From a candidate division FCPU426 bacterium (GTDB taxonomy: Bacteria; Oederibacteriota; JAAXVQ01; JAUVAV01), in contig DAOWGI010000093.1 in assembly GCA_030637655.1 (NCBI GenBank), positions 1 through 27,272 on the forward strand: 27,272 bases of DNA. The letters are read 5' to 3'. Positions 13,401-27,270 of the stretch are shown here, piece by piece (position 1 is the stretch's first letter; the number at the start of each line of letters is the position of its first letter). The notes beneath the pieces were generated by a model, which had not been told where the DNA came from, made no database searches, and saw nothing but the letters and a program-made list of their open reading frames with translations. The translations under genes and the position numbers were made by a program.

Positions 13401-15698
13401 TCTGCAGAAAAGCCAGCCGCCAAAGTTTCCACAGAAGAATCACCGGACAAGACTGCGATGGAAGAGGCGGAGGAGAAAGACCCGGTTCTTCAGGAAATGG
13501 AGCGCATGAAACAAATACTCCCGCCCTGGTACAACCAACCACTCAGGAATCTGCGCTGGGATGTTCGGGTTTTACATTATATTCTGCGAGGGATAATGTT
13601 TGCCGGAAGTTCGCTGAGAGGCGGTGACAATCTATATAGGCGAGTGGTGCGCATAGTGCCGGTTTTAGTTTCAGTTGTGCTCTGGGTTTTTAGTAAAAAG
13701 TTCGAGCACGAAGATATTGATCTGGAAAATCTTAACGAGGTTCAGAAAGCGCGCTTAAAGGCGTTTAAAATCTTGCATGGCCTCTCATATGGGGAACTGC
13801 CGACTGAAGAAAGATTAAAACAGATTGACTTCAAGCCGTTGTCTGGGAAGGGCGGCTATATAGAACGGGCGTTGAAGGGAATGTTGTTTGGCGCCTATGA
13901 GGAAAATGGCAAAGAGGCGAATGATGCAACTGAAACCCAATTCTTTATGTTTGAAGATTTGACTAAAAGTATTGTAAGTAATGAACCCAAAAAAGCAGAC
14001 AGCCGGATTAATCATTTTATCTGGCAGGGAAAAATATTCTTTGCCGGTGTTATCGCGGAATATCTGGCGGATGAAGGTTATGCCGGACAACGCATGGACG
14101 GGGTGAGAGAAGCACTGGGCCGGAGCCGTACTTTCCGGCGAAAAGCCGAAAAACCTCGACCCACAGTTGCCACTCTGAGTGGGGGAGTTTTGGCGAATAA
14201 GTATTATCGGCAAAAACATAAAAAGCCTGTGGGCATTAGTCCGGTGGAAATTGCAATTTTGTTGAATATCTACAGTTCTGAAGTAACAAAACATTTGACG
14301 ACAGGAAGAATTTCAGTAGATGAAAGTTTGAAAGAGGTTAAGGTAGAGTTAGAGAAAGTCATGGCTGCCGGAGCACAGCCCAATTTGGCGACTGTGAGGA
14401 AGGTGCTGGAAGAATTGCCTGAGAATAGGGTTGAGCAAGGGAGCGCGGCTTGGCGGCTACGGGCACTGGCAATTGCAAGTCAAGGGCTGACAGGCAAGGA
14501 GCAGGAGATTGTAGCTAATGGGATTATCACAGAGGTAATTCTGGGAGACCGGTCTGTTAGCATTGGGCTGTCGTCGCGGGATGTGGCCGACACGTCCGGA
14601 ATAGAAGCTGAAGAGGTGAAATTGTTGGACACAGCGGATATGTCTGGAATATATGCACAGCAATTACAGGAAGTGCAAGCCATGATAAATGCGTTGCAAA
14701 AGGATACAGTAAAGGCAGGGAAAGCTAAGGGTCTGATTGAGCGTTTGGAGATGGTGCGGAGAATGTTGAAAAGTTCGGAAAAGGATGCCGGAAAGAAGAT
14801 TTTGGCTGAATTGGCGCGCTTGACCAGTGTGGAACAGCCGCAATTGTTTGAAATCGGGGAACGTGTTACCCGGGAGTACGCAGCAGTGGTGAGCGGCGCG
14901 GTTGAGACTGTAGAAATAAAAGGTATGGTCATGGCCAACCGGATGGTATATGAGGTCTCGATGCCTGTGGCAGACAAAGAGGAAGACAGAATAGAGAAGA
15001 TGGAACTTGAGGATTTGCTGGCTGAAAAACTGCCTGAACAAGTGAGAGCCCGGCAGTACCGTGGTGAGCGGAAAGAGAAACTGAAACCAGAGAAAAGAGC
15101 GGTACTGTTTCCGGTTATGTTAGCGCTTATGCGAGTGAGGTTATTTATAATACCCACGCGATGGATGCAAAAAAGCATTTTGAAAAACGCCGGCTGGAGA
15201 TACCTGCAGAAAAAAGTGCGGGCATTACCTGAATCTGATCTGAAGAAACTATTGAAAGGCTATGAAAGTCCAATAGGCCAGGCGTATCTGGAATATTCCC
15301 AAAATCCGGACAGTCGCCGGCTGGAGCGGGAAGGGTTTGTAAATTCCATGCTGCAGGTATTGAAAGCCCAGAGAAAGGAAATTGAGCGCCTGAACGCTAT
15401 GAAAGAGGATACCAAAGAGCTGGAAACTGCGCATGTGCAGTCCATGGATACTTTCATTCAGTTGGCATCGCAACTGCAGGTACTCAATGGCGAACGCATA
15501 GGTGTATGGGTAGGCAGTTGGCATGAGGAAATTTCCAAAAGAGAAATCTGGACGCCAGGTGTGCTGTTAGAGCCGTTCGGCGCTGGAGCCTTGGGTAAGT
15601 ATCAGGATCTGCTAAGAAAGATCGGACACGTGAAATTCGATGATGACAGCATGGAGAAACGGCGGCGTCAGTGGATCCGGTTTGAGGGAATGGCGTAA
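3..15698 (+). CDS. Giant multidomain membrane protein 1 (5'-partial, >5,200 aa; about 5,460 aa if its start matches gene 2)
   Basis: ORF track gives 147..15698, but the frame is already open from base 3 (CAG GCC TGC CGG GAA...). Bases 1-146 match gene 2 coding sequence from 16553, so the GTG at 147 is internal and the true start is upstream of the window. Ends ...RQWIRFEGMA-TAA. Contains several recognisable enzyme folds and hydrophobic bundles. Confidence 0.95.
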   Translation, partial: QACREGEISPLKYGVYLCQYGKRIKLELSSYPNLLLYVSKRRNVIPRKVDLEQVYTESEQLDQAIREWLYTSDAQRQLDQLEERLDIMEKLLNISATPEELQAYRENPKAFQVKQVMDFIREYNELSELTLDTEIYTLDGYLQQVRRFYQMADERSTVFVENTVNRMKEYNTKLAVLVTGGFHTDHVLKEMQARNISYLSLCPRITQEDLVNPYFALIRNRQTPLEKLLAKNQNILKLAPTALQVAHADRNAMVTEAAMNALPKAQRAILDWEILQNISITIAGLKEKGITGKEKLEAKFRAMVEHYFYKNKFNPNWEDTIESKYTLLISIEQLVEKTRIWLGFQPKDGTLAQGLELAPATITEDEKKMMIFSASGAEKMNVQILALKKKEEQGITFPSILTKLFAGMQAILARAQEGWEGLTGSQKAGLALFVGVIAIRLVGPHVSPGIINEASQWAAGQETVFANYDNVLAVVYGLNMIPKNNKQELLDIVKTYINKGEEATLESIQKIVKQTPWDKQIDLLDSLITGHNKCKNKNRKSELAEIINSIWNNFPEEVKAIDVLLTQSSNETTKIQMAMLHDDELLQQAKVQIAIKLFKLRQADKLLLPALEYFNENALKSDEWVEAFPLLLELFEQDSITGETRKEVTKAMAACRDDSAIQPMIDRYVKYGGKINIICIKGLIKMDHDLLLDYLDPIIAGNDQTKRDGLLDIIKWVFGNGNEDILDSIRHSVRSKTSEEQIELMDVFIKVHNEISKTKSAEELKIIISDIWEEKVKKPLKLKMAIKLLKLRNAEELLTEAVDYFKDSAKPGKLDEILGELLKFIMRDEIPVNIRKKAVQAVDKANSTSEKNNNNGKAIVPLLKFYIDENEKSKDAGKDGNPEFIFDTLINQPLSPEYLPICIDGYNRTKKSGLLDIISLFQKKLEDMDPEARMPELVEFFKLDDSELRASAIKSFIDLGLKQLGVLEDDDLKHNGEFLAAFTAILAMAFEKMPTQIQIEEEESAWIKELADQFATEFAITLTDEERRVAFLVALATINPEAAIAQIQQASEDVRRQIKIILGQSQLIKKMDLELITELEQACGEKAAVLRSPASLAFWITLWRNPFDIPAAVKAGEKYLGVEISVLALAGIVGVVLVVLSRPLWFYGIAGAFGLFAVAHQVLKWRVYRARGQLEPADYWKDFAKQIGVFSLYLIPALYTLLGLYLVPENQQLNLVLFFLIGLLAGIVIPIAGFRNYHYDMSIFGKFTLSEIKFDFDMSAESARQVDREDGVLSQFITKDTPFTFILGEGEAKKELPGRLYEIEGRTYVLYGDRWVDFGQVDSDSNPYKKIFASSRIPLSGIVDGELLLGNPRLRDFLGIEQLTVKQATRPLPVGAEAVTELRAFFENKYLDEHSQAAITTIQRVRRLAGFKELDNKILLDYLDALIIVSHAEVSAYREFVQGVANLEILDGIKANLRQLKFDRRLLKILNEIVFFVSKRKLGFPKPLIDLLSEKPSWRKLIKTAADGFGVVVDKNGKFSEKDLVNNANWVEECKKDQLLETMKTEAKQIGVSLDDYLKMFDYDLEIGIAGSASRLLENHFRVNKMQGYNIRVKKGMEKKAVKFFVDQGFNYFKLWRQGDYAYIGITHYVLASYPKKAIIIAGMETMDPSEEWLGEIKGYKIFTQRIVQEMNMDGTLKKKLALGGHGDVTGRMLEAKNEIARMLRQGKNWVRQQGDDVGNYINHILMTHDIKLGYTPMSILTTRQNINLECEESLGKIQAQLDKGKTVTIQGRKVTGINKYQIEFEQGAAIDIKAKVKKLENELNEIENMQEQAAKLTGPAQRDKWIEFMQYYEQIVYNPVNKLVFKSGGDEVKLINIIIGKGGELLEISGKNSFVEESTLPDTLTMRHSENDEIKIPKDVFLATIPRNFNTNCFSLDPLAVAANRDKDIKKIYLAFLKFAHDNRNDIEAVLHARRNAELKAADIIDHILDKEWQARCLLIERFSMTAYPLPVEEKEDPKGKKYLRINSMAQDVSRFEAEMVLSGITAQDLNLNAIEAAVKEIAAAENEAEKAKIKNEYFKKADGRLFLETAKVLRDLNIPINKIIDVPKEDFSQAKKSEDWAKAVELMNKKLIEQSYEPFFEINPITKMQGTNQGQWLAGMFKHGVMGSNTARKLREMATLIAEHGETLSNQKIDHILNKMYEFLGDYESYERQSKPITHAGLAEGLDLLREIGIQLATKYDTLFNPEEAESIKLEIINAIGDITARCEQEGELRWKDFDKITKKIHKFLDGQGAIKSDQKLFPQNSRTKYIQLVEFKKILIKLAFKGKSGYGTLNLWSTWCEKYGESLTIDQMIKLLEIAQSREKQPKLVKLILGITGINALWRFGRLALIRAQQLAMRLSPGINAVFRRNLPDDTLSLAAKAHAVLATGKEITVLDFALRMGVSEENARQALEYLASLKAEKTRLKGIDKKIVIDGRTVYYLLEVKPADMKKASIVIMAGGSEEKLWPLNTDQMPRQFRKFGKDHKNMLQKQIDNALAACFTLDRIFITTKRQYKKLVYEFLPPGFPRENIIWEPSIRQSIAAVALSLKFLEKRHGPDHTAIFMPADRVISGKEAINSALKSAVKGAQNGDNTVLLGVEAKKPETRFGYIKHGPETKLGAEIKDIPGFVEKPEDEQAEKIIETGDYDVNTSIFAMKVDTGLRTLYQISSGLSRVAEEIGEALEKAEDVEELFKEIPVKVAATLNQAFAEAVITNPDSHVRLMTTKGEFDWSAELSWADMSEETDDKGNQELGEGQVDRENIQNTVVYSGAGKQVIVKGLNDLVVIVEDDVVLVMPKSQATEIEQQVEKLRADPQTSWAVIGEKRAKDVSGSQKHETDKQGNELTGLVRVDEETRNCMVKCDSSLAVLLGVEGIAVTQQGDQVVVEAKVPGTKVPASIGVFAQTAGILTIFGMMGGIAYLAIAGNLAALSWLGWAQLAGGALLFLSSWGYADLGPSGPVSWTWPKRAAPYIKPLGAALAITGLMLAAFVHITPTAAAGLGLFGIIGLVILELFLYWPQKKPLANYLGWAAYFLGIAAFILGYGYGELGPSGYVSWEPSPQLQEIFQPLNLASFIGSFLFSALSFLLNIRQRQAERGSLADSKHSVQAENLSDLKKRVKRSQGPSEVLIITNGGDDVIAQKRFSSRIRELFRRDGKTTVMAHPEVVRRGQFLGLLDAIRNWVKKYGPLNKDGVSVGIMMPGKGTRMSPFTQRAHGIKPFIRMLIRTNKKGSWLTAAGASLYTWTLVAYHLKRMGFRGMAWKWGDEPQIAAMRMAAMNLDLNEADAVRFGAETIITDDLAENKEWLHMDPKTGEFKQVRRRSRKDLLERLGLQDTADAKAFIHIGSPALSYTFLEAADKVFGDLTEGSVDVDGYVFEALTQDYATWKMETAKDPDLQKLVENHPDFCLRVQAMKYRINLQKMANKKPELLENIAIQSFLAAENWQQMFDSELFKAAAKYMIAEMIEAHGLKSIVKTFSITGGLQQALDLKFNRPLNIQVVDFGEGHYWGDIGQLAKARKALWAVNDRESKDGEFARQLACIDHVKPDKWGNIVVGDSLVPQDGSVRNSVIIDTKIYGKANINGAVIVDSQLGNATIKEGSVVCKSTVKNLYMEKNAYSYSSIGNRVTIKADFVHTSIPKDPENLSEGLEDWFADSRVDVGADKYYKKKHWGNSMSTEEKFAQMRQRDAMPDAIEEQIDKQYRAGLIADMSSKSPKDHESFELSYLVAFLISSFSAIVFLLIAVDYADSVWIMSLGSLGFVLSLLHGIYSLVKMIYYENISDMLLDQRQESKFITPLQKYKKYELRRQDFARGVMSKVSQEGKIQIAENVKYLPRWLQYTEYAHVILQQKYPWSRGILAHALELPLGLFIMWRDREISSVKTLSDEELKALRETKPIFGRVNIDVVKESEIKAPAKLEAIFDSVTAVLQNNALVMHGYNGRPQKTEFEGQMSNDGQYKYVAGLSNIAVAKWFADEMGKEAKSIEPIKNRRKGAKAQWLIKGFQGRNVNVIMLQPEDTPEHRRANAKLISEAKAGDLIFRENTRFDKREEAKTFKKTVKVRELKELVGFARELTQLDGVLLYEMGVFFDTASAHRVNATNVGAAELFPVVGSRHIADFLAATAKIRAKMKAVHDKGGQNVIIAAGTKEDKIELATDAIGNIAFEGDIIRFGGSIVAAFLAEAGHKTGNNKVSDEAIAAVRRFKAKAAEYGVNYEVPLDLLVVKDTENDPTQSIKNASADDLVKVKDGNIPKGYVLVNLGPDEIQKMLTELDEADGMIAFGPMGPFDLNPKFAAKPSIVIMQKFAKQAKAGKVAVAVGADTSSLIEMAGVEDLFVQQSAGGAFISQTVTEVLIPGINAIKTSQEKFAARFALWKILSVVLGMLLLVPGIIIIINSSLVVLPVAGVAVAAGLVLLALPLILPWINQRFIQVEMQKKKVPDTQSPESSAAGSAEKPAAKVSTEESPDKTAMEEAEEKDPVLQEMERMKQILPPWYNQPLRNLRWDVRVLHYILRGIMFAGSSLRGGDNLYRRVVRIVPVLVSVVLWVFSKKFEHEDIDLENLNEVQKARLKAFKILHGLSYGELPTEERLKQIDFKPLSGKGGYIERALKGMLFGAYEENGKEANDATETQFFMFEDLTKSIVSNEPKKADSRINHFIWQGKIFFAGVIAEYLADEGYAGQRMDGVREALGRSRTFRRKAEKPRPTVATLSGGVLANKYYRQKHKKPVGISPVEIAILLNIYSSEVTKHLTTGRISVDESLKEVKVELEKVMAAGAQPNLATVRKVLEELPENRVEQGSAAWRLRALAIASQGLTGKEQEIVANGIITEVILGDRSVSIGLSSRDVADTSGIEAEEVKLLDTADMSGIYAQQLQEVQAMINALQKDTVKAGKAKGLIERLEMVRRMLKSSEKDAGKKILAELARLTSVEQPQLFEIGERVTREYAAVVSGAVETVEIKGMVMANRMVYEVSMPVADKEEDRIEKMELEDLLAEKLPEQVRARQYRGERKEKLKPEKRAVLFPVMLALMRVRLFIIPTRWMQKSILKNAGWRYLQKKVRALPESDLKKLLKGYESPIGQAYLEYSQNPDSRRLEREGFVNSMLQVLKAQRKEIERLNAMKEDTKELETAHVQSMDTFIQLASQLQVLNGERIGVWVGSWHEEISKREIWTPGVLLEPFGAGALGKYQDLLRKIGHVKFDDDSMEKRRRQWIRFEGMA
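1464..3250 (+). repeat. Alpha-helical, HEAT-like region with an internal repeat of about 200-220 aa
   Basis: Units begin ELLDIV (1464), GLLDII (2127) and GLLDII (2739). IAIKLFKLRQADKLLLPALEYF matches MAIKLLKLRNAEELLTEAVDYF. HEAT-like segments DDSAIQPMI and DDSELRASAIKSFIDLG. Confidence 0.7.
4680..6320 (+). other. UDP-sugar pyrophosphorylase (UDPGP/UAP/USP family)-like domain in protein 1
   Basis: Ordered motifs AGSASRL (4710; cf. AGGxGTRL), FTQ...GGHGD (5052; cf. PxGHGD), QGDDV (cf. NxDNL), KSGG, VEES, FNTN (5730), INSMAQD and FSQAK (6279; cf. FSPVK), with large insertions. Confidence 0.7.
7203..7400 (+). other. Possible winged helix-turn-helix domain in protein 1
   Basis: ITVLDFALRMGVSEENARQALEYL followed by beta-hairpin-like KKIVIDGRTVYYL. 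Confidence 0.45.
7430..8735 (+). other. Mannose-1-phosphate guanylyltransferase (ManC-type GMP)-like domain, degenerate, with duplicated C-terminal beta-helix segment
   Basis: VIMAGGSEEKLWPL..PRQF, EPSIRQS, PADRVI, PETRFGYI, FVEKP, FDWSAELSW, GLNDLVVIVEDDVVLVMPK. A second GN...NCMV..LAVLLGVEGIAV unit follows at about 8580-8735. Confidence 0.9.
8760..9330 (+). repeat. Transmembrane bundle (about 6 helices) with a duplicated loop motif
   Basis: WGYADLGPSGPVSW (8910-8951) and YGYGELGPSGYVSW (9192-9233), each between hydrophobic helices. Confidence 0.8.
9430..11000 (+). other. Sugar-1-phosphate nucleotidyltransferase-like domain (GT-A fold) plus left-handed beta-helix; specificity unknown
   Basis: GIMMPGKGTRMSPFT (9663), GIKPFI, WGDEP, YWGDIG (10581; cf. 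GlgC YWRDVG), then hexapeptide-like repeats GSVRNSVIIDTKIYGKANINGAVIVDSQLGNATIKEGSVV. Confidence 0.75.
11700..13133 (+). other. Phosphoglycerate kinase-like domain, full length, divergent
   Basis: Colinear PGK motifs: RVNID, NGRP, GDLIFRENTRF..EE, AHR..A...G, AGTKEDKI, FGGS, VPLD, IPKG..LVNLGP, FGPMGPFD, VGADT, SAGGA, IPGINAI. Confidence 0.88.
13479..15698 (+). other. Shared C-terminal module of unknown function (protein 1 copy)
   Basis: EMERMKQILP..PLRNLR..VRVLHYILRGIMFA aligns with protein 2 EMLRLQRILP..PIRGLR..VRIMQYLVRSILFA. Further colinear matches continue to about 14275. Confidence 0.8.
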
Positions 15699-15861: not shown

Positions 15862-16017
15862 ATGAGTATTTTCAGCTTATTCCAAACCAGAAAGATTTCT
15901 TCTTTGGAAAAGACGCCGCTGATGGATTGGTGGCAAAAACCACAACAAAGGATGATCACCAGAGTGATTACACTCTTGGTGACACTCACCTTTGTGTTCC
16001 CATACTTAACCTGGGCA
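15862..16017 (+). other. Sec-type signal peptide or N-terminal anchor of protein 2
   Basis: Basic residues, then RVITLLVTLTFVFPYLTWA|FE: a hydrophobic core ending in T-W-A. Confidence 0.7.
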
Positions 16018-19000
16018 TTTGAAGCTCATGCTTACCCGGCTTCAACAACTTCTATTCTTTTCCATCAGCAAATAGTCGAAATCCCGGATAAATACGCCGC
16101 TACTTTAAACACCTTCCAGGGTGGAGAAGACCGGCTGGTTGTTCATGTTCAGGATTTGCATTGTAACTTTGAGGTGCAAACCAACATTGCCCATATTATT
16201 GATTATGTGGCGAGTAAGCATAATCTGAAGTTAGTGGCCATTGAAGGAGCTTCGCTGCCAATTAATGTTACCCATATTTCAACTTTTCCCAATGCTGAAG
16301 TAAGGCAGGAGACTGGGAAATATTTTATGCGTCTGGGCAAGATGGGCGGGGCTGAGTATTACGCGTCCGCGGGAAAACACCCGGTCTGGCTGGATGGAGT
16401 CGAGGACCCCAAGCTCTATGCTGCGAGCCGGGAAATGGTAACGAGTTTTTTAAATGACGAGAGCCAGGGATATGTCTGTGATTTGCGGGACATGCTGGAT
16501 GAGCTTAAAGCAGAGATTTATAATCCAGAACTGCTCAGACTGGACGCCAAAAAGCAGGCCTGCCGGGAAGGTGAAATTTCCCCGCTGAAATATGGGGTTT
16601 ACCTGTGCCGGTACGGCAAGCGGATAAAACTGGAGCTTAGCTCTTATCCCAACCTATTATTATATGTATCCAAACGCCGCAATGTAATTCCCCGGAAGGT
16701 GGAGCTGGAACAGGTTTATACAGAAAGCGAACAATTGGATCAGGCTATCAGAGAGTGTTTGTATACCAGTGACGCGCAGCGGCAGTTGGATCAATTGGAA
16801 GAGCGGCTGGATATTATGGAGAAACTGCTGAATATTTCAGCTACCCCCAAAGAGTTGCAAGCGTACCGGGAAAATCCAAAAGCCTTTCAGGTAAAGCAGG
16901 TAATGGATTTTATCCGGCAATATAATGAATTGAGTGAACTTACGCTGGATACTGATATTTACAGTCTGGACAGTTATTTACAGCAGGTCAGGAGATTTTA
17001 CCAAATGGCGGATGAGCGGAGTACGGTGTTTGTGGAAAATACCGTAAACCGGATGAAAGAGTATAACACCAAACTGGCTGTATTGGTGACCGGCGGATTT
17101 CATACTGACCATGTGCTCAAGGAAATGCAGGCGCGCAACATCAGTTATCTTTCACTCTGTCCGCGCATAACGCAGGAAGACCTGGTAAATCCGTATTTTG
17201 CCTTGATCCGGGACCGCAAGACGCCACTGGAAAAACTTCTGGCTAAGAATCAGAATATATTAAAATTGGCGCCGGGCGCACCCCAGGTTTTGCATGCCGA
17301 TCGCAATGCCATACTGACAGAGATGAATCCAGACCAGAAAGTAAGCAGCCATTGGAAGATTATGCTGAATATAGGTCTGGCTATAGCAGAGCTGCTGAAA
17401 CAGTCCATCAGAGGAAGTGAAGAATTAGAACCCAGGTTTGAGACTATGGTTAATGCTTATCCTTATAAGGCTGAACTTTCTCCTGAATGGGAAACTATGG
17501 CAAAATCAAAATATACTTCAGTCATTTCCATCAAATGGTTATTAGAAAAAACGCGAATATGGCTGAGGTTCCAGCTCAAAGGTGGAAATTCGGCGCAGGG
17601 CCGGGCATTGGCGCCGGTGGCGGAAATAGAAAAAGGTGAGATGGCGGTTCTTGATGAAAAAGAGGCTAAGGCAGCGACCGAGCAAATACTAGCCATGAAT
17701 AGAAAGGAAAAACAGGGAATTACATTTGTTTCAATCTTGGCAAAGCTTTTTGACGGCATGCAGGCGCTTCTGGCGCGGGCGCGAGAAGGATGGACGGGCC
17801 TTACTGATGGACAGAAAGCAGTGCTGGTTTTTTCTTTAGGTGTGATTGCCATAAGCTTGGTGGGTTCGCAGGTTTCGCCTGGCAGCATCAATGAAGCGAG
17901 CCAATTGGCAGCAGGGCAAGAGACTGAATTTGCAAACTATAATAACGTATTAGCGGCAGTGTGTGGTCTGAATATGATTCCCCGAAAAAATAAAAAGCCA
18001 GAGTTATCGCAGAAAAGCTCGGTAGCGGGATTTATCAAAGACAAGCTCTTGAGTTTGGGTATTGTCTGGAAGGTGGGCAGTAGCCTAAGAAATATAGGCC
18101 GCAGAATCACGTTTGGCACATTATTTATTCTTGCTGCAGTAGTTATATTTGTAGTGAATTGGGGGCCTACCAAGCCGGTAACCCAAGTTACCACTGTAAG
18201 TACTGCTGAAAAGCAACCCCTGGTTATTAGCGGCAAAGACTTTTTGGAAGGCAGTCCGGTTTTTGCCATTGTGGGAAAAGCTCTGAACGATGAAACCTTC
18301 TATATGGGCCTGCAGCCTGAAACCATGCGGCCCTTTTACGGTTTGACCATCCTGCATAAAATCAAATTGGATATTAACAAACACCAACGCTTGAAAATCG
18401 CGTTGGACATTACAGAAATCAGTGATAATACCATGTGGTCCCTGCCTTTGTCCTTTACAGGCGACAATGGTGTTTATTTTGTGCAAGATGCTTACTTTAA
18501 ATTCCAGGATGACACGGACAAAAAAGGCAAACTGGTCTATGAAATCAGTATTCAAGAATTGTTTGATGCCTTAGGTATTGTTGCCACGCAGGAAGCCGCG
18601 ATTGAAGTGCGGTTTGCCGTGGTTTCGAAAAGCACGGACACTAAATTTACCAGTCAAACGCAGCCGCGCCTGTTACTAAATATGGATAATTGCAATATCA
18701 CCTTGGAACCGTATCCTAAAGGAGCAGAAAGGAATTTTGAAGTTTTTGAAAAACCGGCTGAAGGTGCTTATAAAGACCATGTACGTAAGCGGTTCGGATC
18801 AGTCGCAGAAGCGGGGCAGATTAAAAAACAGCTGCGCCAATATATGCCGGAAAATCTGATTGCCGTATGGGCGGGAATGAACCAAAACGGAAAAGCCATT
18901 AATCTCAACAATCACAACCGCAACACCCTGATCACGCATCCTGAATATGGCAAGATTAAAGATATTGCTTCAACCAATTATCCGTGGTTTCAGGATTTTG

Positions 19001-22000
19001 AATCCTATGATCCGGTGATACGTAAATATACGATAGCCATGTTGGAGTCAGCCGGGATTAATGCCATAGTGCTTGAGTACTGTGCTGGTATGGATCAGCG
19101 GGATATGTTTCTGCCTGCGTTTATTAATGCGCTCAATCAATCGGATAGATCCTTTGCGCTTTCTTTGGACACACGGGTGAGTCTGCGAAGCACGGATGTA
19201 TTAAAATCCCATTTGAAATTTTTATTGGATACCTATGCCACACAAAAATCAGCTTTGCAAATAAACGGTTTGGCACTCGTTTTTCTACATAACCTGGATT
19301 TGATGGAATTTACCGACGACGACATCAAGCGCGTGGTTGAAGAACTGGAAGCAGAAGGATATGTATTTATTTTAGCTGGAGATAAAACCGGCGCCCAGTG
19401 GATGGGCGCTAATAAATTAAGCCTGGGTTTTGGCAATTATAACAATCAAATGGCTGATATTGTTAAAAAGTACGGAGCTGATCCGGCACAATGGCAGAGC
19501 GCAAGTGTTGCCAATATTGATCCAAACCAACCCGATAGCCTGGGAATTACTTTGGTTTATCCAGGATATGATAATCGCTTTGTCGGCGGAGCGGACACCT
19601 ATGAACTGACCAAAGGGGAACCTAAATTATTCCCGGTTTGGAAGCAAACCCATAAGTTGCAAACACCGGATAGTGATTTATTGGCTCAGACAGTGACCCG
19701 CGCCATGCAGAAAAAACAAAATCAGTTTATGCTTATTTCATCCCTGGACGGAAATCAAACCGGCACGGAATTATTTCCTTCTCTGCAAAAAGGCTGTGAC
19801 CGCATTTTGGAAATTGCGCGTTTAAGCGCTGCCAAAAATGGTCATCGCAGTAATCTTACGGAAATTATTCGAATTGCTGAGCAGGCGGTGCATGACATTC
19901 ATCAGCGCAGAGGGGAAAGCGTACCGCAAGCTATCTTAACTTCCATACAAAAGGCCTACCGCACAGCCAGCCGGCGCCAACCAGAGATTGATAAACTGGT
20001 AAAATCCCAGGAAAGCTCGGCGTTTGGATTTATCAAGGCCATGCTCTTGAGTTTGGGTGGTGCCCTGATTACATTCGGAATCAATGTATTGACCGATGGA
20101 TATGAGGGCCTTCTGCAAGCAGGAGTATGGGGTCTGTTGGTTTTTTTCGCCTACAGCGCAGTCAAATGGGCCGCCATTAAAGTGGCGCAAAAGAACCGGG
20201 CCAAGGCGATGGCAGACGAGGGGAAGGCTGCACGTCCTCCAACCCTGATTCCTGCTTTGCAAGGTTACAAGACCTTCAAAGCCGATGCTGATCAAGAACG
20301 CCGCGGTGTGCTTGATACTGTGACCCCGGAAGGGGATAGTGCCATCGAAGAAACCGTTGCCTACCTGCCCGCTTACTTCCAGTACACCACAGCAGCCCAT
20401 GTGTGGTTACACCAAAAATTACATCTGCCTGAATTCTTTGCTTACTTGCTTGAACCCATTGTGGGCAGTCTTTGGATGGCGGGCAGTAGCCTGAGAAATA
20501 GGGCCAAAAGAGTTACGGTTGGTACAGTCTTTTTAAGTGGGATTTTTATTTTGTTGCTATTCATGGCACCGGAACAATGGAATGAGGCTTGCCGTGCGAC
20601 TTATGGAAAACAAGCAAAGGCTAATCAAACGCAGCATAACCAGGTGGAAAGAATAGTTCGAGGATATCCGCGCGTATTTAACAGCCTGAATGATGTGTTG
20701 GCAACAGGTAAAGAGAAGCGGGACCTTGATACGTATAAACAGCAATCAGAAGCTGATGATAAGCTGGCGGATATTCTCCGGATTATAAACGTTCAAGACC
20801 TTATGTCCAAAGCGCAGGTAGGAACCACGATATTTGCTGTTTTGGAAAATGAGGGTTCGGTTTTTTCGTTTTTAAAAGGCAGGAGCTTAATAAATCTTCT
20901 GAAGTTTCTTATTTCTGCCAACAAATTATATTGGAATATTTATACTGGCGTTGAAAAAATCAAACTCTATGCGACCCCGGCCCAATTGCAGGCAGCCAAA
21001 GAATTGGATCTGCCGATTAATTCCTATGATATCCCCTGGCAAAAGAAGGTTCTGATACTTCCGAAGATACTGGCTAAAAAACACGCGCGCAACACAGCGG
21101 TCAATATCGCTCCTTATGACTGGGCTAATTATTTCAGCTTAAAAGCAAGCGGCCAAACCTTGGAGCAGGATCACTCAGCCATGCTGGCTCATTTGAAAAA
21201 ACAAGAAGCAGATCAGGATATCCGGGACAATGTAATGGAGCACCTGGAGCTGGCAGCTAAAAATAATCTTACTATTCTTTTTGAAACCACAGTGGCGAGG
21301 GAATCATTTGTTCCGCTTAAAAAACTCAGCAAAAGCAGGCATGAATATGTCCGGGATCAGATTCGCTATGTAAAAGCCTTGCGCAAAGCCTGGCTGAAAA
21401 AACATCCGGATAAAAAACCGCCGATTGGTATTGTGCTGGATCCCTGGCACTTGACCGGAGATATGCTGGGACCGAAAATTAAAACCTGGCTGAAACAAGG
21501 CCGGTCCAGACAGGATATCCGGGAGAAGGAACTACTGCCGCTGTTAATAAAATTTTGTGATGAATGCGACGGCCTGATTGCTCACATTGATATTGGCAAT
21601 GCCGCGCCCTGGGAGATCAAGTTCTTGCCCGAAGAGCTGCAGCGCGGAAGGGTTATGAGTCCTGACAGTCTGGTGCCGAATCTGGCCGTAATCCAGTATC
21701 TCATGAGGACCAATCCGGATATTGTGAATAATATTACTCTGGACGGGTCACCCCAAGCGCCGTTGATGTCCACCCGGGCAGGAAAGTTTACTTTAGGCGC
21801 GATATTTGCGGCCTTGGCAGCCTTTTTTGTTATGCTAATCAAGGCTTTCAAGAGACGTTTAGGATCTGCCGGAAACGATGGGTTTACATTAGTAGAAGTG
21901 GCGTTTGCTGTGACTGGGGTGGCAATTGTTGTGCTGGGAGTGGTGCAACCAGCGGTTTTTAGCTTCGCCGGATTGATGGCTGCGGTGAGTGTGGCCATGA

Positions 22001-25000
22001 TTGCAGTACCGCTTATCCTGGCGATTTTCGTTCAAATGAATAAAGGTTCACGAATTTCTTTTAGTAAAAGTGTGAAAGTAGGGACGCAAGTTGCATTGAT
22101 CATTTGTATGTTCATTGTGCCGTCGTTTTGGACACGGTTGTATGCTCAGGTTGGAGTAGATAAGAAAATTGAACAAGTGATTGTTGATCCAAAGCGAATT
22201 ATAAATATAACCGACCTGTTTGAGAATTCAAGGAGTACAGGCGGAAAAATATACCGCCAGGGCGATAAAGTGATGATTATGGGCCATGAGTGGTGTACTC
22301 TTCCTTTTGGTTCTATTAGGAGTGGACCAATTAAAATAGATTTTGATAGTCCGCGTACTATAATTAAATTAAATATCGAAACTGTGACTAATGGATGGTA
22401 TTTTATTATTCATTCACCTAATCTGCCTGTAGCTCCAGGTGGTAAATATATAAAGATATGGAATGATAACAGTCGAAAAGGTATTCAGATATATGATTTG
22501 AAAAAATTACAACGCTTTGGCTTAACCGGGGAGCAAGAAGTACAGTTTGAAATAGGTGTTACCACGTATGGTCGGGAAAAAGTAGATAACAATACCAAGG
22601 TTGTATTGAATGTTAGTTCAGTATTGCAGGAGCCTTCCAAAGCTACAAAACGTATTAAACAAAGAAAAACAGAAATAACAAAAACAGTAAGGTTGAGTTT
22701 AGCAGATTTATTCAAAAATTCTAATAAAACGGGAGTGTTTTTAACTCAACAAGGTAATCAATTAATCATTAAGGGAGATGAGTGGTGTTTTAATACCTTT
22801 GGTTCTATCAGGAGCAAACCTATTAAGATAGATTTCAATAGCTCGCCCGGGATTCGATTAAACATTCTGGATGTGACCCATGAATGGTATTTGATTGTCC
22901 ATTCTCCTGATTTGGCCGATTTTGTAAAAATCTGGCCAGATAATAGCAGGACAGGGACCCTGACCTATGATTTGACACAATTGGGTTTGGAAGGCACAAA
23001 GGAAATTACATTGGAGTTTGGTGTAAGTTCTTATAATACACCAGGTCATAAGAAAGTTAATGAACAAAATACAGTAGTTGTCATTGACGCACAGACACAA
23101 TTGACCGGAGTTGTTCCAACCGGTTATATTGGTACTGAAAAGCAAGCAAAGTCAAAGACTGAGCTGACTCAATATTTCACTAAATCAGGTCTACATAAAT
23201 CCTTAAAAGGCGGGCTTAAAAGCACTGTTCAGGCGGCCTTGGTAAGAGATCAAATATTTAAGTATGCTCGGATAGAAGGAAATAAAATCTATATTCATGC
23301 TGTGAATTGGTGGGAGAGACCTGGTAAAGGCGCTGATCATTGGAGTTGGTATGGTCACTATCCCAAAATAGATTCCACTGACATTGCGTCAGTCTATCAT
23401 CCTCTTCTTGGTCTCTATGATTCTTCAGATGAGGAGTATATGGAATGGGTGATTGAGGTTCTCATGGACATGGGTGTGGATGGAATGAATGTTGATTATT
23501 ATGCCGGGACCAGAGAGCATGATAAATGGCTGGCAAAACTATTCGAAGTTGTGGAAAAAGTGAATAAAAAAAATCCCTTGGGAAGAAAATTTGAGCTGGC
23601 AGTTATGTATGAGACCAAAATAATCAGAGAGAATTATGGTTTTGCGGATAGAGGCGTGCTGAAAGAGCATATTAAGCGTGTTCTGAACACCTATGCCTTA
23701 AGTCCTGCCTATCAGCGAGTAGCTGGTGTGCCGGTAATATATGTTTTTGGCATGGCTACAACTGGTTTCCAGGGGGAAGATTACAGACAGATTGCACTGG
23801 AATTGGAAAAAGAAGGATATATCTATCTTCTCGTGGGCGATAAAACCTATGAATCACAGTATTTAGGGGATAAAGCCGCAGCTGCAGTTCATCAATGGAT
23901 TGACATGTGGGGATTGATGAATATGCCGGAGGTTGCAAAACTAAGCCGGGATGTAACTAAATTAGAGGCTCGTCACCATGCTCTTTTGCGCACAGCCAGG
24001 GAAATGAAGCGTGTGGATATTATGGGAATTGCAGCCGTGTATAATGAATTTACTGACAAGAAACTTGGCGGCGGAGATTGGGGCCGGGGAGTGCATAGGT
24101 TCCTGGATTCCCGGGGTGGTGATTATTTTGAGCAAGGCGATGTTTTTAAAGAAACTATGAAATACGCGATTGAAAATCAGGATTGGCTGCTGTGGACATT
24201 ACTGATTACCTGGGATGACTGGCACGAAGGCACTCAGATGGAACCTTCACTTGAAAAGGGGTTTAGTAAATTTTTCGGAATTATGGAATTTGCAGCCGGA
24301 TACAAAGGTTTTAAGGCTGACCCACGTGCGGTTATCAAGCGTACTGAAAAGTATGCGCATGAAATATATGGTGAGAAGCTTCCACCACAAGTGAATAAAA
24401 TTATTAAAGATGCATTACACTACGCGTCCCAGGTAGACAGGAAGATTGAACAAAAGTATAGGAACTATTTGAAAAGACAAGCAGGCATCGAGGCAGCCAA
24501 AAAAAGGCATGATGCTGAAGCCAGGGAAAAATTGAAAGCGCATCCTTTCCGCGCAGCCTGGGGTTTTATTTTCGGCGCAATTAGCGGGGTTTTATCCTTA
24601 GTTTTGATCGGATTAAGTATTTATCTGGGTACAGGTCTGGATAATTCTCTTCTTGTTTTAGCTGGTATAGCAGTAAGTACTTTATTCGGGCTCTATTTTG
24701 CAATGGCAACTCTTGGCTTTGTAAGGACAGGCAGAGCTGTATACAAGGTTATGTATCAAAGCTTGCACCAAGACAATCCTGGAGCCGGCCGGTGGACTAT
24801 TGCCTGGAAAGCATTCACTGGCGCGATTGCCTGGTCTAATGGTATTTTAGGCAATGAAAAAGCCTTCAGAATATTGCAGAAGGAATATCCTAAAGAAGCG
24901 GATCGAGTTTTCTATCATGAGCAGTTTAAAAACCATTTTATCGGCATGCTGGTTATGTTCCCGTTTGTGCAGAATTATCTGGAACGCAAAGTTGTTCAGG

Positions 25001-27270
25001 CATTCCTGAAGGCGCCAGGTCCCCTGCAGGTGGAATCTAAGATTCAGTCGTATGTGTGGGGCCAACCGGCCAAAGATTCTTTTATTATCCGGTTCTTGAA
25101 CCGGGCTTTAAATAAGAAACAAATGGATATAAATATTGCAGAGCTGTGGTTTGGAGCGCACAAAAAGAATCCGGGTGTAGTACGAATTGCCGGACTGCCA
25201 ATGGCGCTGGACCGTTTTGCCAAAGCAGTTGGCGAGCCTTTATTAGGCAAAGGCCGGATGGAAATCGGACAGTTGTTCAAGATTTTAGATGCCAAAGAGC
25301 CCTTTTCAATGCAGATGCATGAGCGCTTCAAACCGGATTCCAAGAATGAGAGTTGGATGGTGGTTATTGACCGGGATAGGTTAAAGCAGGAGGATAAGGA
25401 TCAGACCATTGCCGAGATTCATCTGGGTTTCCGACCAATAGCAGAAATTGATGATAAAATCCTGCCAAAATTCCGAAAAGAATATGAAGCCCTACACACC
25501 AAAGCAGCCAAGATAGTGTACTTTAAGACCCAGTATGCCAATGTCCTGAAAAAGGGCAGAACAGATAAAGAAGGCAAAGAGATCAAGGCTTTCAGCAACA
25601 AACTGGAACTTCGCTGGGAAAACGGGGTGGTGGAAGCATATTTTAACGGCAAGAAGCAATCAGCAGAGATAAAGAAAAAGCTGGGTCTGGACGATGACAT
25701 GCTGGTAATGAACGTGCCGGGCGCGACGGTTCACGCTACTTCATACGGGTTAATTTATGAGGTGCAGGAAACTTGCGACAAGACGCTGCGCTTGTATGAC
25801 CAGGGCCGGAATGATCCCAACCGGCCGCTGCATATCGAAGAAGCGCTGGAAAAACTTGATTTTACGCCTCGGCCGCTTAGTGACTATCTGGTAAAACCGG
25901 TTGAGTTGAATGAAAGGACAAGGAATCTGATTCGCACACCGTTATATTCAATGGATCAAATATCATTGGAAACACAGCCGTCTTTGGATAAGGATACGGG
26001 TGATGATTCCGCAGTTGTCAAGGTGGATGGCTACCAAATGCTGATGGTGAAAGACGGTGAGGGACAGCTGTGCTATTCTGAACCGGACGGCACTGAGCGG
26101 GAAATCCAGTTGCGCCGCGGTGATACTCTAATTGTACCGGCGTTTATGAATAGTTATACGCTTTTCTCGAAAAGCAGGTTGACAGTACTCAAAGCCTATG
26201 AAGCATCGGCTCAGGAGATCACAGAGGCGCAGGGGCTGCGCGGCGGCAAGAGTTTATGGGAAGAAGACGGGTTCTTTGAAGCACCGGGAGTAGAGAAGGA
26301 GGAGGGACCTGAAAGCGCGATTAAAGCGGAAATGCTCCGCCTGCAGAGGATTCTGCCGAAGCCGTTAAATGTTCCGATCAGGGGGCTGCGGGAATTGCCT
26401 GTGAGAATCATGCAATATCTGGTGCGCTCGATTCTGTTTGCCAATGATCGGAGCACCGGCGGACATCCGAACCTGGGCTTGCCGCTCCAGGCTGCGGCTG
26501 GAATCGTGCTGGCCGGGATATTCCTGCTGCAAAGCACAGTAGCTGTTTTTGCCTGCCTGCCTGGAACAGAACCAGTAGGCACTATTTCTAATACGCCGCG
26601 TGTAGAAGCCTTCAAGCGAAGCACACTGATCGCAGACGATGTAATGGCCGGACGGTTTAACATAAAAGGGACGGAGTTTGTCGGGTTATCAGCCAGAGGA
26701 AACTTCTTTACTCGTCTCTGGAAGGGCGAAGCGCTGGGCGCGTGTATTGAAAGAACTGAGCGCGCGGATCATAGCAGCCGGGTACAGTATTTTGTTCCTA
26801 ATAGCCTGTGCGTGGTGCTGAAAAAAGATATTGATCCTGAGGCAGGATTAAGCGAGCGGCTGGTCTATTACACGAAGGCTTTTTTATTAAGCAGCATTGC
26901 GGAGTATCAAAACAGAAAAAACCTAATGAAGAGCCGCTGGGACCCAGTGGCTGAGGCCTTTGGCAAGCGTGGTTATGCCGTCGTAGAATTGGAGAAAAAA
27001 GCACCTGAGCAAAAAGCGCTGGCCCGCGGAGAAATGACTCCTGCGCAGTGGCAGGAAGTTAAGCGCAAGCAAGAGGCGGTCTCTTCGACCGAATTCATGA
27101 GTCTGGTAAATGGCTATCTTCAGGAAGCAGCAGCTGCTTTAAAGCAAAGAGAAAGCATGGAAAGTCAGGCTGAAGAGCTGGCAGCCAAATTGAATCTGCA
27201 GGATATGCTGAATGCCATGCCAGAGCTAAAGGGATGGGAACATGATATTAAAAAAGTGATGTTAGCCATT
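15862..27270 (+). CDS. Giant multidomain membrane protein 2 (3'-partial, at least 3,803 codons), paralog of protein 1
   Basis: Manual translation of frame +1: in-frame TAA at 15850, ATG at 15862 (MSIFSLFQTRK...), no stop through 27270. AGGAG at 15845-15849. Alternative starts ATG 15922 and 15952. Shares N- and C-terminal modules with gene 1. Confidence 0.93.
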   Translation, partial: MSIFSLFQTRKISSLEKTPLMDWWQKPQQRMITRVITLLVTLTFVFPYLTWAFEAHAYPASTTSILFHQQIVEIPDKYAATLNTFQGGEDRLVVHVQDLHCNFEVQTNIAHIIDYVASKHNLKLVAIEGASLPINVTHISTFPNAEVRQETGKYFMRLGKMGGAEYYASAGKHPVWLDGVEDPKLYAASREMVTSFLNDESQGYVCDLRDMLDELKAEIYNPELLRLDAKKQACREGEISPLKYGVYLCRYGKRIKLELSSYPNLLLYVSKRRNVIPRKVELEQVYTESEQLDQAIRECLYTSDAQRQLDQLEERLDIMEKLLNISATPKELQAYRENPKAFQVKQVMDFIRQYNELSELTLDTDIYSLDSYLQQVRRFYQMADERSTVFVENTVNRMKEYNTKLAVLVTGGFHTDHVLKEMQARNISYLSLCPRITQEDLVNPYFALIRDRKTPLEKLLAKNQNILKLAPGAPQVLHADRNAILTEMNPDQKVSSHWKIMLNIGLAIAELLKQSIRGSEELEPRFETMVNAYPYKAELSPEWETMAKSKYTSVISIKWLLEKTRIWLRFQLKGGNSAQGRALAPVAEIEKGEMAVLDEKEAKAATEQILAMNRKEKQGITFVSILAKLFDGMQALLARAREGWTGLTDGQKAVLVFSLGVIAISLVGSQVSPGSINEASQLAAGQETEFANYNNVLAAVCGLNMIPRKNKKPELSQKSSVAGFIKDKLLSLGIVWKVGSSLRNIGRRITFGTLFILAAVVIFVVNWGPTKPVTQVTTVSTAEKQPLVISGKDFLEGSPVFAIVGKALNDETFYMGLQPETMRPFYGLTILHKIKLDINKHQRLKIALDITEISDNTMWSLPLSFTGDNGVYFVQDAYFKFQDDTDKKGKLVYEISIQELFDALGIVATQEAAIEVRFAVVSKSTDTKFTSQTQPRLLLNMDNCNITLEPYPKGAERNFEVFEKPAEGAYKDHVRKRFGSVAEAGQIKKQLRQYMPENLIAVWAGMNQNGKAINLNNHNRNTLITHPEYGKIKDIASTNYPWFQDFESYDPVIRKYTIAMLESAGINAIVLEYCAGMDQRDMFLPAFINALNQSDRSFALSLDTRVSLRSTDVLKSHLKFLLDTYATQKSALQINGLALVFLHNLDLMEFTDDDIKRVVEELEAEGYVFILAGDKTGAQWMGANKLSLGFGNYNNQMADIVKKYGADPAQWQSASVANIDPNQPDSLGITLVYPGYDNRFVGGADTYELTKGEPKLFPVWKQTHKLQTPDSDLLAQTVTRAMQKKQNQFMLISSLDGNQTGTELFPSLQKGCDRILEIARLSAAKNGHRSNLTEIIRIAEQAVHDIHQRRGESVPQAILTSIQKAYRTASRRQPEIDKLVKSQESSAFGFIKAMLLSLGGALITFGINVLTDGYEGLLQAGVWGLLVFFAYSAVKWAAIKVAQKNRAKAMADEGKAARPPTLIPALQGYKTFKADADQERRGVLDTVTPEGDSAIEETVAYLPAYFQYTTAAHVWLHQKLHLPEFFAYLLEPIVGSLWMAGSSLRNRAKRVTVGTVFLSGIFILLLFMAPEQWNEACRATYGKQAKANQTQHNQVERIVRGYPRVFNSLNDVLATGKEKRDLDTYKQQSEADDKLADILRIINVQDLMSKAQVGTTIFAVLENEGSVFSFLKGRSLINLLKFLISANKLYWNIYTGVEKIKLYATPAQLQAAKELDLPINSYDIPWQKKVLILPKILAKKHARNTAVNIAPYDWANYFSLKASGQTLEQDHSAMLAHLKKQEADQDIRDNVMEHLELAAKNNLTILFETTVARESFVPLKKLSKSRHEYVRDQIRYVKALRKAWLKKHPDKKPPIGIVLDPWHLTGDMLGPKIKTWLKQGRSRQDIREKELLPLLIKFCDECDGLIAHIDIGNAAPWEIKFLPEELQRGRVMSPDSLVPNLAVIQYLMRTNPDIVNNITLDGSPQAPLMSTRAGKFTLGAIFAALAAFFVMLIKAFKRRLGSAGNDGFTLVEVAFAVTGVAIVVLGVVQPAVFSFAGLMAAVSVAMIAVPLILAIFVQMNKGSRISFSKSVKVGTQVALIICMFIVPSFWTRLYAQVGVDKKIEQVIVDPKRIINITDLFENSRSTGGKIYRQGDKVMIMGHEWCTLPFGSIRSGPIKIDFDSPRTIIKLNIETVTNGWYFIIHSPNLPVAPGGKYIKIWNDNSRKGIQIYDLKKLQRFGLTGEQEVQFEIGVTTYGREKVDNNTKVVLNVSSVLQEPSKATKRIKQRKTEITKTVRLSLADLFKNSNKTGVFLTQQGNQLIIKGDEWCFNTFGSIRSKPIKIDFNSSPGIRLNILDVTHEWYLIVHSPDLADFVKIWPDNSRTGTLTYDLTQLGLEGTKEITLEFGVSSYNTPGHKKVNEQNTVVVIDAQTQLTGVVPTGYIGTEKQAKSKTELTQYFTKSGLHKSLKGGLKSTVQAALVRDQIFKYARIEGNKIYIHAVNWWERPGKGADHWSWYGHYPKIDSTDIASVYHPLLGLYDSSDEEYMEWVIEVLMDMGVDGMNVDYYAGTREHDKWLAKLFEVVEKVNKKNPLGRKFELAVMYETKIIRENYGFADRGVLKEHIKRVLNTYALSPAYQRVAGVPVIYVFGMATTGFQGEDYRQIALELEKEGYIYLLVGDKTYESQYLGDKAAAAVHQWIDMWGLMNMPEVAKLSRDVTKLEARHHALLRTAREMKRVDIMGIAAVYNEFTDKKLGGGDWGRGVHRFLDSRGGDYFEQGDVFKETMKYAIENQDWLLWTLLITWDDWHEGTQMEPSLEKGFSKFFGIMEFAAGYKGFKADPRAVIKRTEKYAHEIYGEKLPPQVNKIIKDALHYASQVDRKIEQKYRNYLKRQAGIEAAKKRHDAEAREKLKAHPFRAAWGFIFGAISGVLSLVLIGLSIYLGTGLDNSLLVLAGIAVSTLFGLYFAMATLGFVRTGRAVYKVMYQSLHQDNPGAGRWTIAWKAFTGAIAWSNGILGNEKAFRILQKEYPKEADRVFYHEQFKNHFIGMLVMFPFVQNYLERKVVQAFLKAPGPLQVESKIQSYVWGQPAKDSFIIRFLNRALNKKQMDINIAELWFGAHKKNPGVVRIAGLPMALDRFAKAVGEPLLGKGRMEIGQLFKILDAKEPFSMQMHERFKPDSKNESWMVVIDRDRLKQEDKDQTIAEIHLGFRPIAEIDDKILPKFRKEYEALHTKAAKIVYFKTQYANVLKKGRTDKEGKEIKAFSNKLELRWENGVVEAYFNGKKQSAEIKKKLGLDDDMLVMNVPGATVHATSYGLIYEVQETCDKTLRLYDQGRNDPNRPLHIEEALEKLDFTPRPLSDYLVKPVELNERTRNLIRTPLYSMDQISLETQPSLDKDTGDDSAVVKVDGYQMLMVKDGEGQLCYSEPDGTEREIQLRRGDTLIVPAFMNSYTLFSKSRLTVLKAYEASAQEITEAQGLRGGKSLWEEDGFFEAPGVEKEEGPESAIKAEMLRLQRILPKPLNVPIRGLRELPVRIMQYLVRSILFANDRSTGGHPNLGLPLQAAAGIVLAGIFLLQSTVAVFACLPGTEPVGTISNTPRVEAFKRSTLIADDVMAGRFNIKGTEFVGLSARGNFFTRLWKGEALGACIERTERADHSSRVQYFVPNSLCVVLKKDIDPEAGLSERLVYYTKAFLLSSIAEYQNRKNLMKSRWDPVAEAFGKRGYAVVELEKKAPEQKALARGEMTPAQWQEVKRKQEAVSSTEFMSLVNGYLQEAAAALKQRESMESQAEELAAKLNLQDMLNAMPELKGWEHDIKKVMLAI
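16130..17230 (+). other. Conserved N-terminal domain, possibly EreA/ChaN/TraB-Tiki-like fold
   Basis: VVHVQDLH, LVAIEGA, LDGVED, ERS..FVEN, LAVLVTGGFH: the H...E...R...GxxH arrangement typical of that superfamily. Confidence 0.55.
16553..18005 (+). repeat. Direct repeat copy B: shared N-terminal module
   Basis: Counterpart of 1-1465. Similarity ends at GLNMIPRKNKKPEL. Confidence 0.97.
18220..18700 (+). other. Beta-sandwich, CBM-like domain 1 in protein 2
   Basis: IKLDIN..LKIALDITEI...W...YFKFQDDTDKKGKLVYEI..LG...IEVRFAV is a distant match to the two tandem domains at 22198-23100, and sits directly before a glycosidase domain. Confidence 0.55.
18850..19830 (+). other. GH99/GH71-like glycosidase domain 1, catalytic motif degenerate
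   Basis: DIASTNYPWFQDFESYDP, AGINAIVLEY, VYPGYDNR, ISSLDGNQTGTELFPS. Homologous to domain 2 (ELEAEGYVFILAGDKT vs ELEKEGYIYLLVGDKT). Confidence 0.8.
20820..21750 (+). other. Xylose-isomerase-like / AP-endonuclease-2 TIM-barrel domain, divergent
   Basis: LAAKNNLTILFE (E at 21283), IGIVLDPWH (21439-21450), IAHIDIGN (21583), ITLD (21742) follow the family's E...DxxH...HxxD...E order, with substitutions. Confidence 0.55.
21880..21945 (+). other. Internal type IV prepilin-like cleavage/methylation motif
   Basis: KRRLGSAGNDG|FTLVEVAFAVTGVAIVVLGVV: G-1, F+1, E+5, hydrophobic helix, preceded by basic residues. Confidence 0.6.
22198..23100 (+). repeat. Two tandem beta-sandwich, CBM-like domains (about 140 aa each)
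   Basis: GHEWCTLPFGSIRSGPIKIDFDS..WYFIIHSP..IKIWNDNSRKG..YDL vs GDEWCFNTFGSIRSKPIKIDFNS..WYLIVHSP..VKIWPDNSRTG..YDL (units about 22198-22620 and 22690-23100). Confidence 0.85.
23281..24310 (+). other. GH99/GH71-like glycosidase domain 2, catalytic motif largely intact
   Basis: KIYIHAVNWW, DHW, DIASVYHPLLGLYDSSD, GVDGMNVDYY, VMYE, PVIYVFG, LITWDDWHEGTQMEPS (cf. GH99 ITSFNEWHEGTQIEP). Confidence 0.88.
25020..26200 (+). other. Type I phosphomannose isomerase (ManA-like) domain in protein 2
   Basis: IQSYVWG, AELWFGAH, LFKILDAKEPFSMQMH, KNESW, VPGATVHA, YEVQETCDKTLRLYD..R.LHIEEAL, LRRGDTLIVPA. The Zn ligands Q, H, E, H are all present. Confidence 0.92.

Follow-up and report, generated by a model that had tools for sequence, protein, structure and literature searches.

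Can a giant bacterial membrane protein be cut internally, at signals of the kind that normally stand at N-termini? The question is raised by the window analysed here, which is the entire 27,272-nt contig DAOWGI010000093.1 (G000:C115; assembly GCA_030637655.1) of a candidate division FCPU426 bacterium and is occupied by two tandem giant frames, ORF1 and ORF2. About 2,000 residues into the ORF2 protein, the original prediction noted a motif resembling the cleavage site of type IV prepilins (a class III signal) and, shortly after it, a segment resembling a signal peptide. It proposed that membrane peptidases cut at both places, one product possibly serving a pilus or a type II secretion system, or else that both segments are fossils of captured genes. 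The two sequences are present as described: KRR...G/FTLVEV with a hydrophobic helix after it, and KSVKVGTQVALIICMFIVPSFWTRLYA/QV (the slash marks a putative cleavage point here and below). Nucleotides 21787-22146 encode four consecutive membrane helices in a hydropathy scan, with the prepilin-like motif on helix 2 and the signal-like segment forming helix 4. We find that helix 4 is probably an export signal kept from a captured secreted module, whereas the prepilin-like motif is, on balance, rather likely to be a chance look-alike.

Helix 4 closes at A2095 (nt 22144-22146), ahead of QV. Its n-region is basic, with 4 K/R, its core runs uncharged over 15 residues, and its c-region reads TRLYA. 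A profile-free search returned nine homologues of the jelly-roll domain that follows it. This domain has no Pfam family; the secreted proteins P0005-P0013 are built of 2-4 copies of it, and the long members P0006 and P0007 also carry DUF6259. All nine homologues begin with 2-9 K/R and then an uncharged run of 9-23 residues. Six of them (P0008-P0013, 325-375 aa) consist of a signal peptide and two domain copies only, and N2060-K2400 of the ORF2 protein aligns end to end with these six at 21-26% identity, LYA/Q of the window sharing its column with the FA that ends the signal peptides of P0008, P0011, P0012 and P0013. The order in the window, signal-like segment, copy 1, linker and copy 2, is the same as in P0008-P0013; the window unit differs in being embedded in a giant frame, with a GH99-like domain after it.

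Because helix 4 stands in the place of the unit's signal peptide, it most likely exports the downstream module. This collinearity is the best-supported positive result of the analysis and marks helix 4 as a real topogenic element. The notion of fossils of captured genes is borne out for this segment, in that nine of nine homologues have their signal peptide at the same place; for the prepilin-like motif we favour chance. Like Sec signal peptides and start-transfer sequences, helix 4 has a basic n-region, a 15-residue core, a small residue at -1 and, next to it, a domain that is secreted in homologues. Unlike Sec signal peptides, it is not N-terminal (residues 2060-2095), lies behind three other helices and has L at -3.

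Signal peptidase I may, in addition, cut after A2095. This would give an N-terminal membrane product and a C-terminal product that begins at Q2096 and is anchored by later helices. We regard such cleavage as possible but doubtful; it is compatible with an exporting helix 4, to which it merely adds a step. The core lies within the range of the nine homologues, the n-region is basic, A stands at -1, L at -3 and Q at +1, and the Y-A of the window aligns with the F-A that closes the signal peptides of these four homologues. According to PMC2120157, the hydrophobic region is shorter in cleaved signal peptides than in uncleaved signal anchors, and this length difference also speaks for cleavage. The site passes the -3/-1 rule in its permissive form only. 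That form is non-specific, being passed by 112 of 138 similarly oriented cores of giant frames, and the stricter form [AVS]x[AGS], passed by 73 of the 138, rejects the A2095 site. The homologues, moreover, have G or S at -3 rather than L, and the segment is tethered N-terminally by helix 3. The resemblance to a signal peptidase I site is no more than chance would give. The cytochrome b/c1 (fbcH) polyprotein of Bradyrhizobium is a bacterial precedent for cutting at an internal signal peptide; our literature search gave nothing relevant on it.

The fold of the probably exported unit agrees with the order carbohydrate-binding module (CBM)-CBM-GH99 that had been assigned to it, which is reasonable at fold level. 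An AlphaFold2 model (alignment A1) gives two beta-sandwich domains at pLDDT ~80; the linker helices have pLDDT <50, so the model is silent on helix packing. Foldseek returned jelly-roll or CBM-like matches, among them a tandem CBM22 (E 6.8e-5); the TM-scores of the two-domain model were low. The GH99 family (PF16317, cut-off 33 bits) scores 50.7 bits on the whole ORF2 protein, 41.1 on its second GH99-like module and 21.1, below the cut-off, on the first; the match spans profile positions 50-162 of 341 only. A weak PDB sequence match to endo-alpha-mannosidase (E 1.5e-4) was also found for the GH99-like module.

The prepilin-like motif stands on different ground. The loop ahead of helix 2 is spelled K1994-AFKRRLGSAGND-G2007; after it come F2008-TLVEV and a hydrophobic helix of 21 residues. 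The close match to the pilin motif that had been reported holds for the strict pattern and not for the profile cut-offs. On a 37-aa piece, PF07963 scores 12.9 bits (cut-off 21.2), covering profile positions 5-26 of 27, and TIGR02532 scores 13.7 bits (cut-off 16.3). When the flanks are included, the prepilin profiles report nothing, either on a 120-aa piece (E up to 10) or on the whole protein (E up to 1), and the G2007 site is not among the matches listed in whole-genome profile scans.

The position of the motif is also unlike that of a class III signal, which the A24 peptidases (PilD/TadV) recognise. The likeness consists of Gly at -1, Phe at +1, Glu at +5, a helix after the site, a basic stretch before it and a putative location at the cytoplasmic face. 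The window site, however, is internal: it lies at residue 2007 and not at an N-terminus behind a short basic leader, so that 2006 residues precede the cleavage point, with a membrane helix right before the loop. Helices 3 and 4 follow within 65 residues, and the next folded domains are the jelly rolls instead of a pilin domain. The site further differs in being below both cut-offs and unconserved, and the peptidase of the genome is short, without an N-terminal methyltransferase-associated domain. Pilins and pseudopilins are extracted from the membrane via a single N-terminal helix, and a pilin-like fate is unlikely for a product that begins at F2008 with three helices before its first folded domain.

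The motif does not recur in the genome's other giant proteins. The pattern occurs seven times in six-frame open reading frames (ORFs) of at least 80 aa in the genome, twice with a hydrophobic tail: at G2007 and in a small ORF of contig C29. With its tail, the strict pattern is found once among the 47 frames of at least 1500 aa (153,583 aa, ~612 helices); of 11 relaxed matches in these frames, the G2007 site alone has the hydrophobic tail. The C29 ORF is a 104-aa frame in which G-VTLIEL (G000:C29:7705-7737, minus strand) is followed by a hydrophobic helix, and it holds the only other strict site with a tail in this genome.

Conservation in homologues, by which the prediction could be judged, was not found. 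The domain upstream of the linker, for which neither Pfam nor the PDB gave a sequence match, is found again at 30-51% identity in the giant frames of five relatives (G001, G004, G002, G006 and G014). It is followed there by one helix (G001, G004) or two (G002, G006, G014), all without the motif. None of 11 related loci (12,539 aa), which were compared at domain junctions and include no true orthologue of this junction, has the strict pattern, and the single relaxed match lay in a soluble context. Among the ~150 PF07963 matches listed for 41 relatives, none falls in a frame >1517 aa; a further 33, weaker ones, lie outside this list. A degenerate DNA pattern for the motif matched 36 of the 41 genomes, mostly at pilin genes; eight other matches from the same order and one on contig C120 of G000 are chance matches in soluble contexts, except L019, which is a true N-terminal pilin. 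Among 1.84 billion representative proteins, the only homologue of the four-helix linker is P0004, which is a fragment of the ORF2 protein (residues 231-3600, 100% identity). Word-index searches returned only P0004 and P0003, the latter a partial protein from a relative, in which the linker is missing. A tblastn search of its own genome with the 136-aa linker gave compositional matches only, and no paralogue.

In these relatives, the number of helices after the upstream domain tracks the module that comes next (loci L003, L004, L005, L006 and L007). One helix precedes a HAD-type or helical, cytoplasmic-looking part (G004, G001), and two precede a second copy of the upstream domain (G002, G006). 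From this variation, the helices appear to set the sidedness of the modules.

The peptidase that the prediction called for is present in part. G000 (91.55% complete) has a single A24 peptidase, a 172-aa ORF (G000:C32, L001 1477..1995), without the A24_N_bact domain. Peptidase_A24 occurs in 10 of the 11 genomes of the taxonomic family, always in frames of 170-198 aa and with at most one short A24 each, and A24_N_bact in none of the 11, two of which are 100% complete. Short A24 enzymes (TadV/CpaA type) cleave without N-methylating, so that no N-methyl-Phe would be expected. Elsewhere the genome encodes a Tad-like cluster and two other T2SSE-type ATPases, none of them on the window contig. Among the matches listed, the genomes of the family have one to three weak pilin-type matches each, fewer than other families of the phylum.

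Sub-threshold scores, lack of conservation and of recurrence, two further helices after the motif and a short A24 peptidase only are the grounds on which we read the motif as chance. On the same grounds, the claim that a prepilin peptidase cuts here and releases a product for a pilus or a type II secretion system is not upheld. Such a motif is to be expected somewhere when many windows are scanned, and it is unremarkable per genome: shuffles that keep local composition predict ~0.2 sites in all frames of at least 200 aa.

Several observations weigh against this explanation. First, the strict pattern (PROSITE-type: G at -1, a hydrophobic residue at +1, E at +5 and a hydrophobic stretch) is matched exactly, with G at -1, F at +1, T at +2, E at +5, a 16-residue hydrophobic tail (mean hydropathy 2.68 over the next 15 residues) and a basic loop before it. 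Second, the motif is unusual within giant frames, where the shuffles predict 0.02-0.03 sites. Third, low profile scores are weak evidence in this genome, since its own pilin-like genes are also sub-threshold (16.5, 15.5 and 12.5 bits); one of its pilin-like genes, on contig C41, reads G/FTYLEW, and the short A24 peptidase may accept such sites. Fourth, there are no close orthologues of the junction to compare, and the site may be lineage-specific; contigs of four cold-seep metagenome DNA runs (one study) are identical over the site and are uninformative on selection. The runs listed for this DNA included none of RNA or protein.

The remaining points of this kind concern topology. The loops K1994-G2007 and Q2058-K2072 hold 4 K/R each and the Q-P turn none. 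By the positive-inside rule, and given that homologues in which the jelly-roll domain stands alone are secreted, G2007 would face the cytoplasm, as the peptidase requires. The facing of the Gly thus does not refute prepilin cleavage; the same hand rule, applied over the whole protein, conflicts at the hairpins ~1387-1436 and 2896-2954, and the inference is a local one only. Topology predictions for giant multi-helix proteins are stated to be unreliable in 10.1101/2023.11.21.568195, and the later preprint 10.64898/2026.06.07.730766 gives topology statistics for such proteins.

That the motif is a fossil, a pilin- or pseudopilin-like N-terminal helix captured during assembly of the giant gene and now a mere membrane helix, is unlikely. 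Helix 4 shows that N-terminal targeting sequences can persist internally, an in-frame ATG lies 17 codons before F2008, the length of a prepilin leader, and the PF07963 match extends beyond the six-residue core of the motif. Against these stand the two helices after the motif and the lack of a pilin-like domain. There is no linker homologue from which such a capture could be traced, the ATG falls within helix 1 and has no ribosome-binding site, and the lineage has few pilin genes, with one to three weak matches listed per family genome.

Active cleavage between G2007 and F2008 by the short A24 (TadV/CpaA-like) peptidase, at a lineage-specific internal class III signal, would take the N-terminal two thirds off the GH99 part; we consider it quite improbable. 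The exact pattern with its basic loop and E at +5, its rarity in shuffled giant frames, the A24 peptidase in the genome, the native pilin-like gene with G/FTYLEW and the probably cytoplasmic Gly all count in its favour, and the cutting of giant multi-helix proteins is stated as an open question in 10.1101/2023.11.21.568195. The scores, however, are sub-threshold and vanish with flanks, the motif is missing at the junctions of relatives and unique among ~612 helices, and 2006 residues and a membrane helix take the place of a short free leader. The two helices after the motif would keep the product from being extracted as pilins are, and none of the 11 family genomes has A24_N_bact. Our literature search found no report of an internal prepilin-peptidase site, and the word "prepilin" occurs 0 times in the main text of 10.1101/2023.11.21.568195 and 10.64898/2026.06.07.730766.

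More improbable still is double cutting, by the A24 peptidase between G2007 and F2008 and by signal peptidase I between A2095 and Q2096, which would dissect a giant precursor at retained targeting signals. If true, the site would be the first class III signal known from an internal position, and the polyprotein question would be answered directly for giant multi-helix bacterial proteins. An internal start at M1991 (ATG 21832) that yields a separate, ordinary prepilin-type protein is hardly credible. Although this in-frame ATG opens a 17-residue basic leader, it has no Shine-Dalgarno sequence upstream, in contrast to the AGGAG at the ORF2 start, and was rejected as a start on that ground. In addition, the promoter-like sites (6 found, 4.7 expected) show no excess, neither promoters nor terminators being enriched around the site, and the product would keep three helices and more than 1800 residues.

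In the explanation that we prefer, a look-alike motif ahead of a probable export signal, the four-helix linker would join the upstream domain to the two jelly rolls and the GH99-like domain, with both flanking modules lying outside the cytoplasmic membrane. Helix 4 would be, or would stand in for, the Sec signal peptide kept from a unit of one signal peptide and two jelly rolls; as an internal start-transfer signal, it would carry the module that follows through the membrane. The GFTLVE where helix 2 starts would be a one-off look-alike of a class III signal and no processing site, so that G2007 would stay uncut, and the protein would not be delivered to a pilus or a type II secretion system. 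In this explanation the sequences, the helices, the sub-threshold scores, the missing conservation and the alignment with real signal peptides are observed, and the sidedness, the export by helix 4 and the uncut G2007 are deduced. The features on which this explanation is built are collected in Table 1.

Table 1. Positions, in the 27,272-nt window, of the two giant frames, the four-helix linker and the neighbouring domains (residue numbers are those of the ORF2 protein).
Feature	Window position	Strand	Residues or length	Basis or remark
ORF1	3..15698		5231 aa	5' end open
ORF2, giant modular membrane protein	15862..27270	+	3803 aa seen	3' end open
Conserved upstream domain	20884..21777	+	~1675-1972, limits approximate	homologues in related giant frames
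Membrane helix 1	21787..21840	+	F1976-I1993	hydropathy scan
In-frame ATG, 17 codons before F2008	21832..21834	+	M1991	no Shine-Dalgarno
Short basic loop KAFKRRLGSAGNDG	21841..21882	+	K1994-G2007	probably cytoplasmic; "leader" if read as a prepilin
Prepilin-like motif G2007-F-T-L-V-E2012	21880..21897	+	G2007-E2012	PF07963/TIGR02532 below cut-off
Membrane helix 2 (carries the motif), then Q-P turn	21883..21945	+	F2008-V2028	hydropathy scan
Membrane helix 3	21952..22032	+	A2031-V2057	hydropathy scan
Internal signal-peptide-like segment, helix 4	22039..22146	+	N2060-A2095	collinear with homologues' signal peptides
Beta-jelly-roll (CBM-like) copy 1	22207..22626	+	~2116-2255	model, fold matches, homologues
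Beta-jelly-roll (CBM-like) copy 2	22699..23028	+	~2280-2389	internal repeat, 43% identity; model
GH99-like module core (best Pfam stretch)	23371..23751	+	2504-2630	Pfam

The two frames that make up the window are modular, with ~21-22 membrane helices per frame lying between modules (hydropathy scan). By Pfam, ORF1 carries a nucleotidyl transferase with a ManC beta-helix and a phosphoglycerate kinase, and ORF2 carries two GH99-like modules and a type I phosphomannose isomerase. The domains resembling mannose-1-phosphate guanylyltransferase, phosphoglycerate kinase and phosphomannose isomerase lie at window positions 3714-8777, 11364-13148 and 24724-26481, respectively. Enzyme domains that use cytoplasmic substrates are fused with GH99-like modules in the same giant membrane proteins, to which this lends a mannose theme.

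The ORF2 start has an AGGAG ribosome-binding site upstream and an N-terminal signal-like segment (window 15862-16030) with basic residues, a hydrophobic core and A-H-A before Y-P; its peptidase I site is better than the internal one at A2095. The visible start of ORF1 (window 1-1470) is paralogous to ORF2 residues 232-712 (window 16553-18007), with 86.7% nucleotide and 76% amino acid identity. Both the contig and the independent fragment P0004 start at this repeat, so the assembly probably breaks there, and the N-terminus of ORF1 is probably like that of ORF2.

Two further junction motifs were seen by eye, "GSSLRN..R" just before a single helix and "HPFRA.WG.I" ahead of a helix hairpin. The places are ORF2 ~738-770, 1540-1570 and 2890-2955, ORF1 ~4530-4567 and loci L005-L007. 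Across one hairpin unit, ORF2 1347-1519 and ORF1 3702-3869 share 30% identity. Giant frames of this kind are common in the G000 genome: its 47 open frames of at least 1500 aa (for example on contigs C73, C20, C8 and C115) sum to 153,583 aa, or ~14% of 3.28 Mb, and have ~612 predicted membrane helices. The longest is 12,216 aa, and relatives have frames of up to 13,678 aa.

A close known type is that of the Archaeovorins, which 10.1101/2023.11.21.568195 presents as very long frames with many helices between modules and with sugar-metabolism and carbohydrate-active domains. The window shares these traits in its ~21-22 helices per frame and in its PGK, NTP_transferase/ManC, PMI and GH99-like domains. 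It differs from them in that Archaeovorin-type proteins, as given there, have at least 30,000 aa, carry a SecA-DEAD-like domain and belong to Omnitrophota, whereas the frames of the window are truncated at 5231+ and 3803+ aa, come from candidate division FCPU426 and contain no SecA-DEAD, C39 or S8 domain that Pfam detects. Whether giant proteins act as one chain or as cut products is left open in both 10.1101/2023.11.21.568195 and 10.64898/2026.06.07.730766.

These results bear on that question in three ways: (i) an internal prepilin-peptidase site would give a concrete cleavage point, and the evidence speaks against it; (ii) A2095 offers one plausible, putative signal peptidase I site; and (iii) for one helix of a giant protein, the origin can be followed back to the signal peptide of a module that is elsewhere secreted on its own. 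By this example, at least some of the many helices in giant proteins may be targeting signals kept from captured genes and now deciding on which side of the membrane the modules lie.

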